This document shows, in pieces, positions 767 to 49,120 of a stretch of 64,000 nucleotides of DNA; the first letter of the stretch is position 1, and the number at the start of each line of letters is the position of its first letter. Both the position numbers and the translations under genes were made by a program. The notes under the pieces were generated by a model, which worked only from the letters and a program-made list of their open reading frames with translations, was not told the origin of the DNA and made no database searches. Source of the DNA: Actinomycetota bacterium (GTDB taxonomy: Bacteria; Actinomycetota; JAHEXW01); assembly GCA_025355855.1 (NCBI GenBank), contig JANXYU010000032.1, positions 28,832 to 92,831 on the forward strand, read 5' to 3'.

Positions 767-1293
767 CGCTTAGGGGTGCGGCTTTCCTCTTTGGAATATA
801 CACAGCCGCAGTATTTCTGACGATACATTCCCAGCTCGCGGGCGCGAGCTTGACCGGCGCGATAACCGGCCCGCCAATCTTCGTATAGAAAAGCGACTCC
901 GGCGGCCGAGGCAGCCGCCTCGCCCGCTTGGCGCAGCTCGTCATGCTTCTGATAAGGACTAACCAGTAAAGTTGTCGAGAAGGCGTCGAATCCCCCGGCA
1001 GCGGCCTGGCGAGCCGTCTCGCCCAGCCGTAGCTGGTAACACAGATGACAGCGGTCAGCCTCGGGCGAAACAACGGCGCTGAAATAGTCATCGACGTTGT
1101 AATCGCCGCTGGCCACAGTCAGCCCGACTTTCTGGCAGTACTCCAGCAGGTTGGCACGCCGCTTCTCGTATTCCGCCAGAGGATGAATGTTGGGGTTATA
1201 GTAGAGTACGGTAAGGTCAAGACCTTGCCGCCGGAGGGAATCGGCCGGATATATCAGGCACGGTCCACAGCAAGCGTGCAGCAGAACGCGCAT
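763..1293 (-). CDS. queH: epoxyqueuosine reductase QueH (DUF208)
   Basis: 176 aa with HACCGPC and CxxC motifs typical of QueH. It sits adjacent to queA. Confidence 0.75.
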   Translation of the reverse strand: MRVLLHACCGPCLIYPADSLRRQGLDLTVLYYNPNIHPLAEYEKRRANLLEYCQKVGLTVASGDYNVDDYFSAVVSPEADRCHLCYQLRLGETARQAAAGGFDAFSTTLLVSPYQKHDELRQAGEAAASAAGVAFLYEDWRAGYRAGQARARELGMYRQKYCGCVYSKEESRTPKR

Positions 1294-22672: not shown

Positions 22673-25474
22673 CTATTTAAGAACGTCCTTGAGGAATTGC
22701 CCGGTATAGGATTTCTTGGTCTTAGCGACGGTCTCCGGTGTACCGGCTACAACTAGCCGACCGCCCCCGGCCCCGCCCTCGGGCCCCAGGTCTATCAGCC
22801 AGTCAGCGACCTTGATGACATCTAGGTTGTGCTCGATAACGATTATCGTATTGCCCTGGTCGACAAGGCGATTGAGAACCTCCAGCAGTTTGGCGATATC
22901 GGCGAAATGCAGACCTGTCGTCGGTTCGTCGAGGATATATAAGGTGCGCCCGGTGGCGCGTTTGGCCAGTTCGGCCGAGAGCTTCACGCGCTGCGCTTCC
23001 CCGCCTGACAAAGTCGGCGCCGGCTGGCCCAGCTTGACGTAGCCCAACCCAACATCGTAAATCGTTTCCAGCTTGCGTTTGATGACCGGGATCTTGTCAA
23101 AGAACGCCAAACCCTCTTCGATACTCATGTCGAGAACCTGAGCGATGTTTTTGCCTTTAAACTTGATATCGAGCGTTTCGGCGTTGAATCTCGTCCCTTT
23201 GCATACCTCACAGGTAACATAGACGTCCGGCAGAAAATGCATCTCGATCTTTATTTGGCCATCGCCGTGGCAATTCTCGCAACGGCCGCCGGCGACGTTG
23301 AAGCTGAAGCGACCCGGCTTGTAGCCGCGCAGTTTTGCCTCAGGCGTCATCGAATATACCTTTCTGATCTCGTCGAAAGCTTTGATATAGGTCGACGGAT
23401 TACTGCGGGGGGTCCGACCGATAGGCGACTGGTCGATCTCGATAGCTTTATCGATATATTCCAAACCTAAAATCGCCTCATGCGCTCCGGGAATCACGCG
23501 GCTTTTGTAGAGCTTTCTGGAAACCGACTTCCAAAGAATGTCATCGACGAGCGTACTCTTGCCTGACCCGGATACCCCGGTGACGCAGGTCAAAACACCC
23601 AAAGGAAACTCTATGTCCATGCCGGTAAGGTTATGTTCGCGGGGACCTTTGATCACTATGGCAGAACCGTTGGACTCCCGCCGTTTGGCCGGTACCGCAA
23701 TCGTACGTTCGCCCCGCAGATATTTTCCGGTCAGCGATTCCTTAGACGCCATGATGTCTGCAACCGTCCCTTGCGCGACGATCTGTCCGCCATGCGCCCC
23801 AGCCGCCGGCCCGATATCAACAATATGATCGGCGGCCAGGATGGTCGCCTCATCGTGTTCCACCACGACCAAGGTATTGCCGATGTCGCGCAGGTGCTTC
23901 AGGGTCACGATCAGCCGCTCGTTGTCACGCTGGTGTAGTCCAATACTCGGTTCATCTAGAACATATAGTACCCCGACAAGGCCAGATCCGATCTGCGTGG
24001 CCAGACGGATACGTTGCGCTTCTCCGCCCGCCAACGTCGCCGCCGCCCGGTTGACCGTCAGGTAATCCAAACCGACGTCAACGAGGAACTTGACCCGCCG
24101 CTTAATCTCTTTCAAAAGCCGCTCGGCTATCTGCGCTTCACGGTCATTCAGTCGCAGGTGCTCAAAGAATGACATCAAATCTCGTGCGGACAGTTCACCC
24201 ATTTCATAGATGTTAATCCCGCCAACGGTGACGGCCAATATCTCTTGTTTCAAACGGGCGCCGTGACAGGTTGGGCAAGGAACGAGGCTCATATACTCTT
24301 CCAGCTTATCCCTGGCATAATCGGAATCAGTTTCTTTGTAGCGTCTCGTTATGTTATTCAGCACGCCTTCGAATTTAGCGTGATGGGCATGTGTATAGCC
24401 GCTGACACTGCGGAACCGAACATAAACGCGTGTCTCGCCGGTGCCGTTCAGAATGACGTCTTTTTGCCCGTCCGTCAGGTCGTGCCAGGGCATGTCGATA
24501 TCGATGCCGTACTCTGCCGCGACAGCCCGAATCATCTGTGGATAGAAGTTGACTGAAGGTCCGGAAAACGGCGCTATGGCCCCCTCTGCCAAGGAGCGGC
24601 TGGGTTCGGGGATTATCAGATCAAGATCCGGTTGGACGCGCGACCCTAGACCGTCGCACGCCGGACACGCGCCGTAGGGGGTGTTGAAGGAAAAAGCGCG
24701 CGGTGATAATTCGCCGAAACTAAACCCATCGTTCAAGCAGGCATAGTGGGTCGAATATGATTCTCGTTCCCCGCCCACCTCGACTGCGATAATTCCATCC
24801 GCCAGCTTCAGGGCGGTTTCCACGGAATCGGCCAGCCTTCGCTTGACGCCTTCCTTGATGACCACCCGGTCGACTACCACGTCAATATTGTGCCGTACTT
24901 TCTTGTCCAACGCGATGTTCTCATCAAGTCCGTAGACTTCCCCGTCGATCTTCACCCGGGCATAGCCTTCCTGGCGCAGACGGTCGATCAGTTCCCGATA
25001 TTCACCTTTCCGGTCCCTCACGACAGGCGCTAAAATGGCCAGCTTCGTACCCGCGGCGCGGCCAGCGATCTGTTCGATGATCTGTGTGGCGCTTTGCTGC
25101 GTTATGGCGGCACCGCATACGGGGCAGTGGGGCGTACCTACTCTAGCGTATAGGACGCGCAAATAATCGTAGATCTCTGTTATCGTGCCGACAGTCGAAC
25201 GAGGATTCTTGGTTGTGCCCTTTTGGTCGATACATACGGCCGGGCTTAAGCCCTCGATGGAGTCGACATCAGGCTTGTTCATCTGTCCGAGGAACTGACG
25301 AGCGTAAGCGGACAACGACTCGACATAGCGTCGTTCTCCCTCGGCGTAGAGGGTATCGATGGCCAGTGACGACTTGCCGGATCCGCTCATGCCAGTCATT
25401 ACGATTAATTTGTTGCGCGGCAGTTCGATGGAAACATTCTTGAGGTTATGTTCGCGGGCGCCGCGAATGACTAT
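22673..25474 (-). CDS. uvrA: excinuclease ABC subunit UvrA (start unresolved; conserved N-terminus extends upstream of the first ATG and overlaps the uvrB stop)
   Basis: The track ORF of 908 aa begins [12 protein letters not shown]. The same frame upstream encodes [28 protein letters not shown], the canonical UvrA N-terminus. No in-frame ATG, GTG or TTG exists before the upstream stop at 25517-25519. The feature end is placed at the ATA codon 25472-25474. Confidence 0.85.
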
Positions 25475-27459
25475 TTTTTCTTCCGTTTTCCTAACCCTTC
25501 CTCTAACATATTGATTTCATCGCGAATTCGAGCCGCGTCCTCGAACCTCTCGGCGGCGGCGGCTTCCATCATCTCGTCCTTGAGAAGGCGCAATAGCATC
25601 TCGACTTCGTCTTTAGGCGCCTTCCGGATAGCCTTTATTGCGTCACGCGTTTCCGAAGTGTCGTCCATCTGGGAAGCGACCAGGATGTCGTTCACGGCTT
25701 TGCGGATGGTGGCGGGCTTGATGCCGTTCTTCTTATTATATTCCATCTGTAGCTTGCGCCGCCGGTTCGTCTCGGATATGGCCCGGCCCATACTGCCCGT
25801 GATTTTGTCCGCGTACATAATGACCTGGCCGCCGACATTTCGGGCCGCCCGCCCAATCGTTTGAATCAGCGATGTCTCGCTGCGCAGGAAGCCTTCCTTA
25901 TCCGCGTCCAGAATCAGGATCAGGCTGACCTCAGGCAAATCCAGACCCTCGCGCAGCAGGTTGATGCCAACCAGGCAATCATATTCGCCTCGCCGCAAGG
26001 ACGACAATATCTTGACGCGTTCCAGCGTAGCGATATCACTGTGCAGATATTGAACTCGCAGCCCAAGATCGGACAGGTAATCCGTCAAATCCTCCGCCAT
26101 CTTCTTGGTCAGCGTCGTGATCAGCACGCGTTCGTGTTTGTCGACGCGTTTCTTTACCTCGTTCATTAGGTCGTCCACCTGGTCTTTGGTCGGACGCACA
26201 ATAACTTCGGGATCAATCAAACCTGTCGGCCGGATGATCTGCTCGACGATGCGCGAACTCACTTTTCGCTCGAAGTCCGCGGGCGTGGCGCTCGTAAAAA
26301 CGATGGACTGCGTTCGCTCGACAAACTCCTCGAAACGCAGCGGCCGATTGTCGTAAGCGGACGGCAGGCGAAAACCATAGTCGACAAGCGTCTTCTTGCG
26401 GGCGACGTCGCCCCGGTACATGCCGGTGATTTGCGGCACCGTTATGTGGCTCTCGTCGATAATGGTAAGGAAGTCCTTGGGGAAATATGATAGCAACGTG
26501 TCGGGCGGCTCACCTGGTCCCCGACCCGAAAAATGCCGGCTATAGTTCTCGATGCCATTACAGTAGCCGACCTCCTGCATCATTTCCAAATCAAACTCAG
26601 TCCGCATCGTCAGCCGCTGGGCCTCCAGTAGCTGGCCGTTGTCCTTGAGTACCCTGAGGCGCTCGGCCAGTTCTTGCTTGATGGACACAAGCGCCTTCTC
26701 CATTTTCTCGGGAGCCGTAACAAAATGTGAAGCGGGGTAGATGACTGTGTCGGTTAGGACACGCTTGGTCCGCCCGGTTATGGGATCGATGACCTCGATC
26801 TTCTCAACCGTTTCACCATAGAACCCAATGCGCAGCGCGACTTCTTCGTAGGCCGGAAATACCTCCAGCACATCACCTTTCATGCGAAAGGTGCCTCGTT
26901 CGAGCACATAATCGTTCCGGTTGTATCTGATTTTGACGAGCTTCCTTAAAATCTCGTCTAAATCGTATTCGCTGCCGGTATTGAGCATAACGGTCTGGGC
27001 CAGATAGTCCTCCGGCGACCCCAAACCATAGATGCAGGAGACGCTCGCGACGATTACTATATCGCGGCGCGAGAATAGCGCCGAAGTCGCGGCATGGCGC
27101 AGACGGTCGATTTCTTCATTAATCGAAGAGTCCTTTTCGATGTAGGTGTCTGTTTGTGGTACATACGCTTCCGGCTGATAATAGTCGTAATAGCTGACAA
27201 AATAGGCGACCGCGTTGGTGGGAAATACTTCCTGGAACTCGCTCGCTAACTGGGCCGCCAGTGTTTTGTTCGGCGCGATCACAAGGGTCGGTTTTCCGGC
27301 TGCGGCAATCACGTTGGCCATGGTGAACGTTTTTCCTGAACCGGTTACGCCCAGCAGAGTCTGATATTTCTCACGCTCTTCTAGCCCCGCTAGTATCCCT
27401 TTGATAGCGTTTGGCTGGTCCCCGGCCGGTTGGAATGGGGAGACGATTTGGAAACCCAT
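25471..27459 (-). CDS. uvrB: excinuclease ABC subunit UvrB
   Basis: 662 aa with helicase motifs, a beta-hairpin region and a C-terminal UVR domain ([17 protein letters not shown]). Confidence 0.95.
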
Positions 27460-28280
27460 TAGCTGATTCGCTCCGCCCGGGCCATGGCCAGCCAGAAACT
27501 AAAACCGGCCAAAAAACCGAATAGGAGTGTTCCGATCCCTAACTTGAACGAGAAAAACACGACCGCTCCCCAACCGATCGGCATCTCTTCACCAAACAAA
27601 GATACAGCGGTAAAAGCCAGCGTGGCGACTAACGCAACGGCGCCCCCCGCCACCAATCCCCCGATGCCTTGGCGCAGCATGAGCCCCGCGTCCCATTCGT
27701 CACCGAACGCTTCAACTAACCCTAGGCAAAGGCCCGTAATCGGAAACGCCGCCACCCCGGCGACCATTCCGCCAATCCCGCTGGCCAGCCAGGCGGCAAA
27801 AGTCTGCGCCGCCGGCTTTAACCCCAGGATCAGGCCGACCCATATTGCCACGCCCGTTAAGCCAGCTAGTAACCGGACAACCGGCACTATGTTTTTCTGA
27901 TCAGCCAAGTTGCCAGCCACCGCCCCGCTGATCATAGTAAATAAGCCAGTGATAAGTAAGAAATACGATAAAGCGGGCTTGTTTATCATCACGCCGAGCC
28001 ACAGAAACTTAAATATCGGCAACCCGATTGCCTGGAACAAGCCGAGAAACAGGAGAAACAACCCTCCGGCTGATATAGCGATCAGGCCTCCGCGGCTCGC
28101 CAAAGCTGCCGAGGGCCCTAGGGGCTTTGACGCTTGCTTTCTCTCAGGCCGGGTCGGTGCCTTGGCGCCAGAAGTCAAGGCGACAACAGGTGCTTCTACG
28201 CGTTCGAAGAATGACAGGTGACAGAGATTACAAAACTCCGCCCCGTCTGGATTTACGGCTCCGCACTTGGGACACTCCAT
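27459..28280 (-). CDS. zinc-ribbon domain-containing polytopic membrane protein
   Basis: N-terminal [19 protein letters not shown] zinc ribbon followed by a Gly/Ala-rich multi-TM region. The start is probably the ATG for MECPKCG. Confidence 0.45.
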
Positions 28281-44194: not shown

Positions 44195-44203
44195 CTTGTT
44201 GTG

Positions 44204-44290
44204 CCGGGATGGCGGAATTGGTATACGCGACGGTCTCAAACACCGTTGGGGGTAACCTCGTGCGGGTTCAAGTCCCGCTCCCGGCACCAG
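44204..44290 (+). tRNA. tRNA-Leu(CAA)
   Basis: Manual fold gives a GCCGGGA/TCCCGGC acceptor stem and a GCG/CGC D-stem. The anticodon stem is ACGGT/ACCGT with loop CTCAAAC, giving anticodon CAA. There is a long variable arm, T-arm GCGGG-TTCAAGT-CCCGC, discriminator A and an encoded CCA. Confidence 0.9.
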
Positions 44291-47350: not shown

Positions 47351-48709
47351 TCAGCCGACCTTAGGCAGCGACGCGATCGCGCGCGCCTCATCAGCCTCGT
47401 TGTACTCGTCGTCTTCCAGCTTGCCGTTTAGATAGGCATCGTACGCTGCCAGATCGAAGTGGCCATGACCTGTTAAGAGGAAGCAGATATTCTTTTCTTC
47501 TCCGTTTTCCTTGCACCGCATCGCCTCATCGATTGCGGCCTTGATGGCGTGGGCCGACTCGGGCGCCGGCAAGATGCTTTCCGTGTGGATAAACTGCATT
47601 GCCGCCTCAAACACGCCCATCTGCTTAAAGGCCTCGGCCTCGATCACCTTGTCGTGGTACAGGCTGGATATGATCGGGCTGTCGCCATGGTAGCGCAAAC
47701 CGCCGGCGTGGATCGGCGACGGTATAAAGTCGTGCCCGAGTGTGTACATCATGACCACCGGCGCCATCTTGGCTTCGTCGCCGTAGTCGTACGCATATAG
47801 GCCTTTAGTCAGTGTCGGGCAAGAAGCCGGCTCGACCGCGACCAGGCGTACGTTACGCTTGCCGGATAAATTGTCTCGAACATACGGCATGGCCACTCCG
47901 CCGAAGCTTGAACCGCCGCCGACGCAGCCATAAATAACGTCCGGTTCGGTGTCGATCAAAGCGAACTGTTTTTGCAGCTCTTCGCCGATGATCGTCTGAT
48001 GCAGAATCACGTGATTAAGTACACTGCCCAAGCTGTAGTGGGTACCGGGATGAGTCACCGTGTCCTCAACCGCCTCGCTGATCGCCAGGCCTAACGTGCC
48101 GGGATGGTTCGGATAATCCGCCATCGCCGCCCGACCGGCATTGGTTAGTTCACTGGGGCTGGCCACAACTTTAGCGCCATAGGCCTCCATCAACATGTGA
48201 CGGTAAGGCTTTTGGTTATAGCTGGCCTTGACCATGTAGACCATGCACTCCAAACCCATCAACTGGCAAGCCATCGATAGGGCCGAACCCCACTGGCCGG
48301 CTCCTGTTTCCGTCGCCAGACGCGTCGTACCTTCGAGCTTGTTATAGTAAGCCTGGGCGATCGCCGTGTTCGTTTTATGCGAACCGGACGGGCTCCCGCC
48401 TTCATACTTGTAGAAGATCTTAGCCGGTGTGCCCAAAGCCTTTTCCAGCCGGCGCGCTCGGAAGAGAGGACTCGGCCGGTATAACTTGTAGACGTCCAAA
48501 ACCTCTTCCGGGATGTCGATGTAACGTTCGTCGCTCATTTCCTGCTGAATCAAAGCCATCGGAAATAAAGGTGCGAAGTCCTCCGGTCCAGCTGGCTTGA
48601 GTGTCTGCGGGCTGAGCGGCGGCGGCAAAGGCGTCGGCATATCCGGCAGGATGTTGTACCATTTCGTCGGCATATCGCGTTCTTCTAGAATTATTTTTGT
48701 TCTGTCCAT
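47351..48709 (-). CDS. trpB: tryptophan synthase beta chain, TrpB2 type
   Basis: Long TrpB2-type sequence with a PLP-lysine region. The start was reassigned to the ATG at 48709 (MDRTKIILEE...), which has GAAGGAG 6 nt upstream. The track ORF extends 25 codons further upstream into the leader. Confidence 0.9.
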   Translation of the reverse strand: MDRTKIILEERDMPTKWYNILPDMPTPLPPPLSPQTLKPAGPEDFAPLFPMALIQQEMSDERYIDIPEEVLDVYKLYRPSPLFRARRLEKALGTPAKIFYKYEGGSPSGSHKTNTAIAQAYYNKLEGTTRLATETGAGQWGSALSMACQLMGLECMVYMVKASYNQKPYRHMLMEAYGAKVVASPSELTNAGRAAMADYPNHPGTLGLAISEAVEDTVTHPGTHYSLGSVLNHVILHQTIIGEELQKQFALIDTEPDVIYGCVGGGSSFGGVAMPYVRDNLSGKRNVRLVAVEPASCPTLTKGLYAYDYGDEAKMAPVVMMYTLGHDFIPSPIHAGGLRYHGDSPIISSLYHDKVIEAEAFKQMGVFEAAMQFIHTESILPAPESAHAIKAAIDEAMRCKENGEEKNICFLLTGHGHFDLAAYDAYLNGKLEDDEYNEADEARAIASLPKVG

Positions 48710-49120
48710 GTGAATCACTCCTTCAATAGTGGTTGGTTGTTGTGTCTGACTGTTTTGTCTATTGGTTTTGCCATCGTGAATCATGTGTCGTGTAAATGTG
48801 TTTCAACTTGTACCTCCAAAAACAAAAATACCCCGCGTCCCATATTGGGACGAGAGGTATGCTCTCGCGGTGCCACCCAACTTCGTCTTCGGTATCACTA
48901 CCGGAAACCTTTCGACCTCTTCAGGTTGCCCTGGAAGGTCTAGCCCTTGGTAACGGAGGCTGCCGGCAAAGCCTACTGGCTCGTCTCAAGCTTTCGGTTT
49001 GCGTCTCCGGGGCCCATTCGATCGGCGATTTGGTCATTTCCGCTTCCACCATCCGGAACTCGCTATCGCCCTCTACCGACCTACTCTTCCCCATCACAGA
49101 CTTTCGTAGCGCTTATTCAA
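48710..49120 (-). ncRNA. candidate T-box riboswitch leader of trpB
   Basis: The minus-strand RNA contains AAGUUGGGUGGCACCGCGAG, matching the T-box consensus AGGGUGGNACCGCG, at 48863-48882. It is followed by a hairpin (CGUCCCA-AUA-UGGGACG, flanked by GC-rich pairs) and UAUUUUUGUUUUU at 48809-48860. Upstream are GA/K-turn-like UGAUGG and AGAGUAG motifs and UGG triplets in a candidate specifier region. The bulge UGGC implies a tRNA with discriminator G, consistent with Trp. Confidence 0.45.

Follow-up and report, generated by a model that had tools for sequence, protein, structure and literature searches.

Non-AUG starts, ATGA coupling and dnaX-type frameshifting are all already known, and each has a known example to set beside the case considered here. 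In infC, which encodes IF3, and in pcnB a conserved gene lacks AUG, GUG and UUG and begins at AUU, a weak near-cognate start that keeps expression low. In trpB-trpA the stop of the first gene overlaps the start of the second as ATGA, and termination-reinitiation coupling requires such overlaps or very short distances (PMC10666635). In dnaX a -1 frameshift occurs on A_AAA_AAG between an upstream Shine-Dalgarno (SD) sequence and a downstream hairpin, and in Bacillus subtilis cdd a -1 shift at CGA_AAG involves a Lys codon late in the gene, close to the ribosome-binding site (RBS) of the one that follows. Here we describe the junction of uvrB and uvrA in 64,000 nucleotides of an Actinomycetota genome (assembly GCA_025355855.1, contig JANXYU010000032.1, positions 28,832 to 92,831; hereafter the window), which resembles each of these systems in part. 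The conserved N-terminus of UvrA is encoded there without any ATG, GTG or TTG before it, and comparison with relatives gives good support to the view that this startless state is a real, conserved oddity. Sequence comparison indicates that uvrA is an intact, selected gene whose ancestral ATG is now ACG, and that translation of UvrA probably starts at a near-cognate codon read by initiator tRNA.

uvrB and uvrA are both encoded on the minus strand, to which all junction coordinates below refer unless stated otherwise. uvrB (27459..25471, 662 aa) is identified by its open reading frame (ORF), its translation and the NCBIfam profile NF003673, which it matches at full length with 1044.7 bits (cut-off 743) over residues 3-654, leaving only its last eight residues, GLGKRKKK, outside the profile. 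This tail extends across the 5' end of uvrA in the codons CGG AAG AAA AAA TAG, such that the uvrB stop TAG (25473-25471) is directly preceded by AAG AAA AAA, with a run of six A residues (A6, 25479-25474) that a preliminary description of this DNA had put forward as a slippery site. Relative to uvrB, uvrA is read in the -1 frame, which is open from an in-frame TGA (25519-25517), encodes the conserved UvrA N-terminus, and reaches its first ATG (25399-25397) inside Walker A; this ATG is the start chosen by the gene caller, whose uvrA spans only 22673-25399 (908 aa), and is not the real N-terminus. None of the 39 codons between the TGA and the ATG is ATG, GTG or TTG. On all these points, including the position of the uvrB TAG within the stretch coding for the UvrA N-terminus, the preliminary description was accurate. 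A startless run of 39 codons would have a chance probability of about 13% taken alone, and the case is significant because of the position of the run, not its length.

That position is fixed by family comparison. The uvrA product matches NF001503 at full length (1530.1 bits against a cut-off of 1147, profile positions 3-942 of 943) and TIGR00630 with 1436 bits. Position 3 of NF001503 corresponds to E12 of the stop-to-stop translation of uvrA, and by the NCBIfam UvrA profiles residue 1 falls at about K10/T11, the codons AAA/ACG at 25489-25484; the alignment to UvrA profiles envisaged in the preliminary description thus sets the N-terminus upstream of ATG 25399. The UvrA N-terminal strand, h-x-h-x-G-A-x-x-H-N-L, is present together with GMSGSGKS, and the strand is coded upstream of the first ATG. 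The predicted N-terminus aligns from residue 3 of Thermotoga maritima UvrA (3pih), whose M1 falls one codon after ACG, and from residues 22-24 of tagged chains. The proposed uvrA coding sequence would run over 22673..25486 and encode 937 aa from ACG 25486, or 933 aa if it starts at ATA 25474.

The startless state is shared by four diverged genomes, represented by five assemblies. The window organism is present a second time in an independent Logan assembly (L089, SRR22198310), found via the 908-aa product, and the others are L001 (GCA_023251915.1), L082 (Logan SRR30681717), reached via a lineage-specific neighbouring protein, and L086 (JGI Ga0074195), reached via a DNA pattern specific to the clade and drawn from the region of Walker A. 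Their UvrA proteins are 97% (L001), 92% (L082) and 92.5% (L086) identical to that of the window, with heavily diverged synonymous sites. The L089 junction is identical to that of the window, A6 included, and L001 is 80.5% nucleotide-identical to the window over 12 kb, yet its junction is exactly the same, again including A6. L082 and L086 have the same frames, also without a canonical uvrA start, and their A-run is interrupted (GACAAAATAA and GACAAGATAA, respectively), the junction reading AAG ACA AAA TAA in L082 (ACAAAA, A4) and AAG ACA AGA TAA in L086 (ACAAGA, A-run absent). In all four genomes the part of the uvrA frame that precedes Walker A is free of ATG, GTG and TTG, a reproducible absence of a canonical in-frame start before the conserved N-terminus. 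The TGA at 25519-25517 is replaced by CGA in L001 and L086, where the frame is open for eight codons further and no canonical start is found in them. The comparison of related genomes foreseen in the preliminary description therefore bears out the oddity: the startless state is kept in L001, L082 and L086, and sister genomes have ATG.

Two controls locate the anomaly. As background we took 78 uvrA loci among the matches listed, anchored at the N-terminal motif, with about 60% identity, mostly from Actinomycetota and with none of the close relatives among them; a canonical start lies 7-12 codons before the Gly of RGA in all 78. Eight other ORFs of the window also contain long startless gaps, and each of them (8/8) has an ordinary start where its family profile sets the N-terminus; the anomaly is therefore gene-specific. 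It is confined to the uvrA of this clade. A protein search with the hypothetical fusion junction gave, among the matches listed, fragments of 66-72% identity or less, a search with the UvrB C-terminus two matches, and cluster look-ups of the relatives' proteins no further members. The accession numbers had no match in the literature searched. Separately, a uvrA likewise without a canonical start lies on L084 (about 905-935, minus strand), a low-GC contig from a metagenome that is not related to the clade, in the frame TAG ATG TAA TAT ATT GAA ATA AAG GGA GCT (M * Y I E I K G A R E N N L). The gene upstream of it encodes a LigA-like BRCT C-terminus and its TGA overlaps ATT (as ATTGA); the start there may be ATT (921-919), or an ATG-TAA start-stop mini-ORF may be present.

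The comparison bears directly on whether the start is missing only from the data, or from a dying gene. The genomes are metagenome-assembled, and gene callers give a 908-aa product from ATG 25399, both of which would speak for an assembly or sequencing error that conceals an ordinary start in the true gene, or for a decaying pseudogene that yields only the truncated product. Against an error, the junction is identical in the independent Logan assembly, and the same frames recur in three diverged relatives, two of them without any homopolymer; the homopolymer error suggested in the preliminary description is thus contradicted by five assemblies of four diverged genomes that have the same frames and no start. 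Against a pseudogene, the ORF is intact over 937 codons, with 92-97% protein identity, and the codons upstream of ATG 25399 have a strong synonymous excess. A start at that ATG would moreover cost the protein the strand before Walker A, a strand found in every one of the 78 background loci among the matches listed. We regard error or decay as a highly improbable explanation, and as effectively refuted.

The broken A-run weighs likewise on slippage of RNA polymerase, which by adding one A to the A6 run in some mRNAs would fuse uvrB and uvrA in frame. The arithmetic is right, as the preliminary description had noted, in that A7 would join the two ORFs, and the window and L001 agree in the A6 count. 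Runs known to be prone to slippage are longer, however, at about 7-9 nucleotides (nt) or more, and the run is reduced to A4 in L082 and absent in L086, both of which are startless; it has neither the length nor the conservation expected of such a site. There are also no natural UvrB-UvrA fusions among the top matches of 1.84 billion representative proteins. Since the A-run is broken in two genomes, the shared startless state is explained neither by homopolymer error nor by slippage on that run, and we give transcriptional slippage next to no weight.

Selection confirms that the codons before ATG 25399 are used. Across the 25-codon stretch that opens with ATA 25474 and stops just short of ATG 25399, pairwise comparisons within the clade give 6-13 synonymous against 0-3 non-synonymous differences. 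This stretch is therefore translated, which excludes both a start at ATG 25399 and a pseudogene. Further upstream, where the two genes overlap, the frame under constraint changes. Third positions of the uvrB frame are variable in 8/10 codons upstream of GGA 25491-25489, and in 0/6 codons from there, this GGA included, up to the last sense codon (Fisher p=0.007). Between ACG and ATA there are two substitutions, both at second positions of uvrB codons (K>T and K>R), which in the uvrA frame are third positions, giving E>D in one case and synonymous AAA>AAG (K) in the other. Changes upstream of AAA-ACG are synonymous in uvrB and would be radical in the uvrA frame (VR, TG, VG). On this sequence evidence selection switches from the uvrB to the uvrA frame at about 25489-25486, a switch that would fit translation of uvrA from ACG and a change of frame just before ACG equally well.

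The start that has been lost can be recognised from the sisters. In a neighbour-joining tree of the first 170 uvrA codons the four startless genomes group together, with L088, then L085, then L087 and L083 outside. In L088 the uvrB stop is followed by a 60-nt spacer and ATG GAA GAT AAG ATT ATT ATT CGC (N-terminus MEDKIIIRGA); in L085 the uvrB TAG abuts ATG GAA AAG ATA ATC (MEKIIIRGA); in L087 stop and start overlap as ATGA (N-terminus MTNDKKIIIRGA); and in L083 uvrA lies about 770 nt downstream of uvrB, with GAGGAG and ATG (MADKIIIRGA). The corresponding codons of the startless clade are ACG GAA GA(A/C) AA(A/G) ATA, and in the codon alignment ACG 25486-25484 occupies the position of the ATG of L088, L083 and L085. 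In the simplest history uvrB would have lost the stop adjoining the uvrA start and run on for 16 nt into uvrA; being in the +1 frame of uvrA, the extended gene would end at the first stop there, the TAA or TAG inside ATA-(A/G)TC. In a separate step the ancestral uvrA ATG would have mutated to ACG. The Ile codon ATA is also present in the normally started L085, which marks it as ancestral, and the ATAG or ATAA overlap is probably left over from the older sequence and not a signal built anew.

Initiation at a near-cognate codon, which we consider the probable source of UvrA, could use one of three in-frame codons that hold constant positions in 4/4 startless genomes, at -8 (ACG), -4 (ATA) and -2 (ATT or ATC) codons from the Gly of RGA. 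ACG (25486-25484), itself invariant in 4/4 startless genomes, appears the most likely of them, and the start is tentatively placed there, at somewhat less than even odds: it is homologous to the ancestral ATG, yields an N-terminus of normal length, stands at the point where constraint switches, and has an SD-like element upstream that may act as its RBS. This element, GAGGAAGG (25503-25496), lies inside uvrB, forms the best duplex with the anti-SD sequence (-7.3 kcal/mol), is the sole reasonable match to it, and is found 8 nt before ACG and 20 nt before ATA; its AAGG-TTG part is common to the RBS region of L088. At -8 ACG falls within the background range of -7 to -12, and ATA at -4 would give an N-terminus shorter than in all 78 loci among the matches listed. 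ATA (25474-25472) is a possible, distinctly less probable start, and ribosomes that terminate on uvrB could re-initiate there, instead of or in addition to a start at ACG. It overlaps the uvrB TAG (25473-25471) as ATAG in the window and as ATAA in L082 and L086, so that the overlap with ATA exists in 4/4 startless genomes, and with ACG the overlap is 16 nt. In favour of ATA are this 4-nt phase, which suits termination-reinitiation, and its better near-cognate rate in Escherichia coli, where AUA, AUC, AUU and CUG initiate at about 1-2% of AUG and ACG at about 0.1-1%, ACG-initiated green fluorescent protein carrying an N-terminal Met by mass spectrometry (bioRxiv 10.1101/063800). The third codon, ATT (25468-25466; ATC in L082), would remove most of the first β-strand residues and is for this reason a very improbable start. 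The preliminary description had thus been right in kind in naming non-canonical initiation or reinitiation among its explanations; it named ATA and ATT as codons and missed ACG.

A weak start inside uvrB would also make sense of dosage. With near-cognate starts working at roughly 0.1-3% of AUG, as in E. coli, a low UvrA:UvrB ratio would be fixed within one operon, with uvrA presumably coupled to translation of uvrB, and we infer that few UvrA molecules would be made per UvrB. This is the direction of the ratio in E. coli.

Several points weigh against near-cognate initiation, and against ACG in particular. ACG is outside the standard bacterial start set (NCBI table 11), and no natural bacterial ACG start was found in the literature searched. 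The SD-like element is modest at -7.3 kcal/mol and weaker in L086 (GAAGAAGG, -4.9), and use of SD motifs in the window genome looks patchy. There are four genomes only, two with each state of the A-run. The conserved bases are doubly constrained by two overlapping frames, and because of this conservation does not separate ACG from ATA or from a slip on GGA_AAA_C. Lastly, the window and L001 show no difference in the 37 nt that follow the uvrB stop, in the same block as A6, the spacer and a hairpin, for which a simple start-codon model is insufficient. The block as a whole spans 72 nt without substitution between these genomes (25508-25437) and is the third-longest identical run in the 12-kb alignment, the two longer ones lying in the leader and 5' region of rpsA (S1). 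In L082 and L086 the 37-nt stretch diverges normally, with 5/12 codons differing. A short recombination patch is an unlikely source of the invariance; a sub-lineage-specific requirement at the RNA level, be it a frameshift cassette or a sequence context tuned to a weak start, is possible. Because the invariance may reflect such a requirement, frameshifting stays in contention. The two longer invariant runs, of 92 and 80 nt (window 31276-31185 and 31033-30954, minus strand), cover the S1 leader, RBS and 5' part and may reflect a conserved translational control region. Within the 72-nt block an SOS box was sought by inspection and rejected, as the block has no more than a half-site, CGAACAT, which belongs to the REH codons.

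A programmed -1 ribosomal frameshift at the end of uvrB, as the preliminary description proposed for A-AAA-AAA, would make a UvrB-UvrA fusion the source of full-length UvrA. In the window and L001 the slip would occur at G_AAA_AAA_UAG (25480-25471), a slippery run with a 'shifty stop' and a hairpin 6 nt on, and in L082 and L086 at G_GGA_AAA. The uvrA frame is indeed -1, a slip on AAA re-pairs perfectly, and A6, the 6-nt spacer and the GC-rich 7-bp hairpin (UUCGCGG-CGC-CCGCGAA, 25467-25451, 6 nt after the A-run, encoding I-R-G-A-R-E, -9.5 kcal/mol) resemble the dnaX layout, all of it inside the 72-nt block invariant between genomes 80.5% identical. The two pairs of genomes also show a complementary pattern, L082 and L086 having lost the A-run and having G_GGA_AAA, the window and L001 having A_GGA_AAA and keeping A6; this depends, however, on a single phylogenetic contrast. 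A second conceivable -1 site, A_AAA_C in the uvrB-frame codons GGA AAA CGG (25491-25483), is invariant in 4/4 startless genomes, and uvrA-frame constraint begins at A25489, where such a slip would start. Against it, CGG is a common codon (25% of Arg), so that no pause is expected at A_AAA_CGG, and the SD-like element is only 2 nt from the heptamer at this place, a perfect G_GGA_AAA in L082 and L086 alone. Stimulation of the dnaX -1 shift requires an SD about 10 nt away.

Across the clade the elements of such a cassette do not hold together. No one slippery site is kept in all members, and no conserved stimulatory structure 5-9 nt downstream is apparent (consensus -8.5 kcal/mol, z=-0.28, without real covariation). 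Coding for RGARE often produces such a hairpin in normally started uvrA genes: among 148 equivalent uvrA segments its strength ranks 11, and similar or stronger hairpins occur where the start is normal, a control on which we discount it as a frameshift stimulator. It is weak in L086 and absent from L082. Folding of the junction gave no significant or conserved structure and none better than shuffles, and an Rfam search gave no match there. As a mechanism common to the clade, frameshifting on A-AAA-AAA is thus unsupported, with A4 in L082, no run in L086, an unconserved hairpin and no genuine fusion among the top matches; for the window and L001, where A6, the 6-nt spacer and the hairpin share the 72-nt invariant block, it keeps a small probability.

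The fusion protein itself was sought in an exhaustive HMMER search, using a chimera of UvrB C-terminus and UvrA N-terminus as query against 1.84 billion representative proteins. No genuine full-length UvrB+UvrA fusion was found among the top matches, the long ones covering UvrA only. Three proteins with a UvrB C-terminus and a UvrA N-terminus in one ORF (P0190, P0197 and P0274) were rejected as fragmentary high-GC sequences with frame-garbled linkers; P0197 retains a normal internal Met before the UvrA N-terminus (AMADRLVIRGA), and all three look like gene-calling read-through across uvrB-uvrA junctions, not real fusions. Fusions are absent among these matches though uvrB and uvrA are often adjacent, which argues that a covalent fusion is disfavoured. 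This agrees with the biology of the proteins, as UvrA has to part from UvrB in the course of repair and the C-terminal domain of UvrB is where UvrC binds. On balance we think a programmed frameshift an unlikely origin of full-length UvrA, and quite unlikely the fuller proposal in which UvrA would exist only or mainly as a covalent fusion, the slip site having migrated between sub-lineages and its efficiency setting the stoichiometry of the damage-recognition complex.

A promoter and terminator scan gave nothing above shuffles. On the plus strand, 25449-25479, the complement of the uvrA hairpin and of the A-run (T6) scores as intrinsic-terminator-like (9 pairs, loop 3, tail ACTATTTTTT), with a 6-nt gap between the Watson-Crick stem and the T-run and a regional count of such sites within shuffle expectation. 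The genes coaE, HAD, a hypothetical gene, uvrB and uvrA form a tightly packed block, in which the hypothetical gene and uvrB overlap stop to start by 1-4 nt (window 27457-27461; L001 5001-5004). The hypothetical protein (P0124, 273 aa) has 4 matches among 5.8 billion proteins. Elsewhere in the window a T-box leader (96 bits; 48843-49106, minus strand) precedes a 483-codon ORF (47351-48802), and a tRNA gene lies at 44203-44286 on the plus strand; these two are the only Rfam matches in the window.

Set against the known systems, the junction would by sequence-level criteria belong to none of them, except to the generic class of genes with a near-cognate start. It shares with infC and pcnB a conserved housekeeping gene that lacks AUG, GUG and UUG; unlike infC, the candidate codon, ACG (outside NCBI table 11) or AUA, is embedded in the gene before it, and the trait is limited to a small clade instead of being widely conserved, with no autoregulatory logic known. 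The ATAG or ATAA overlap of the uvrB stop with a uvrA codon has the same phase as ATGA coupling, of which L087 offers a true ATGA, and differs from it in that the overlap codon is ATA, an ancestral Ile codon whose geometry may be incidental, and in that the ancestral uvrA start lies 12 nt further upstream with a 16-nt overlap. To dnaX the likeness comprises an A-rich run, a 6-nt spacer, a GC hairpin, an SD-like element and a product in the -1 frame; unlike in dnaX, the slip site is unconserved, the hairpin is explained by coding, and the product would be a fusion of two enzymes rather than a truncated variant. The cdd event, for its part, gives a short, low-frequency C-terminal extension that is not needed for the downstream gene. 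C-to-U editing of ACG to AUG in plant organelles also involves a genomic ACG at a conserved start position, a formal analogy only; to our knowledge C-to-U editing of mRNA is not known in bacteria.

The junction shows that uvrA, a near-universal DNA-repair gene, is kept under strong purifying selection without a standard start in four diverged genomes. Gene callers shorten UvrA by 29 residues in the window genome and by 21 in L001, where an internal TTG (L001 7037) is chosen, placing the start at or just before Walker A, and automated annotation is consequently wrong at the uvrA locus of these genomes. If ACG is the codon used, it would count as a rare case of natural ACG initiation in bacteria, at a codon that annotation pipelines do not accept, and as a clean evolutionary example, with ATG in the sisters against ACG in the clade. 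If initiation is indeed near-cognate, two operon neighbours would be expressed at fixed, unequal levels by means of a weak start buried in the upstream gene.

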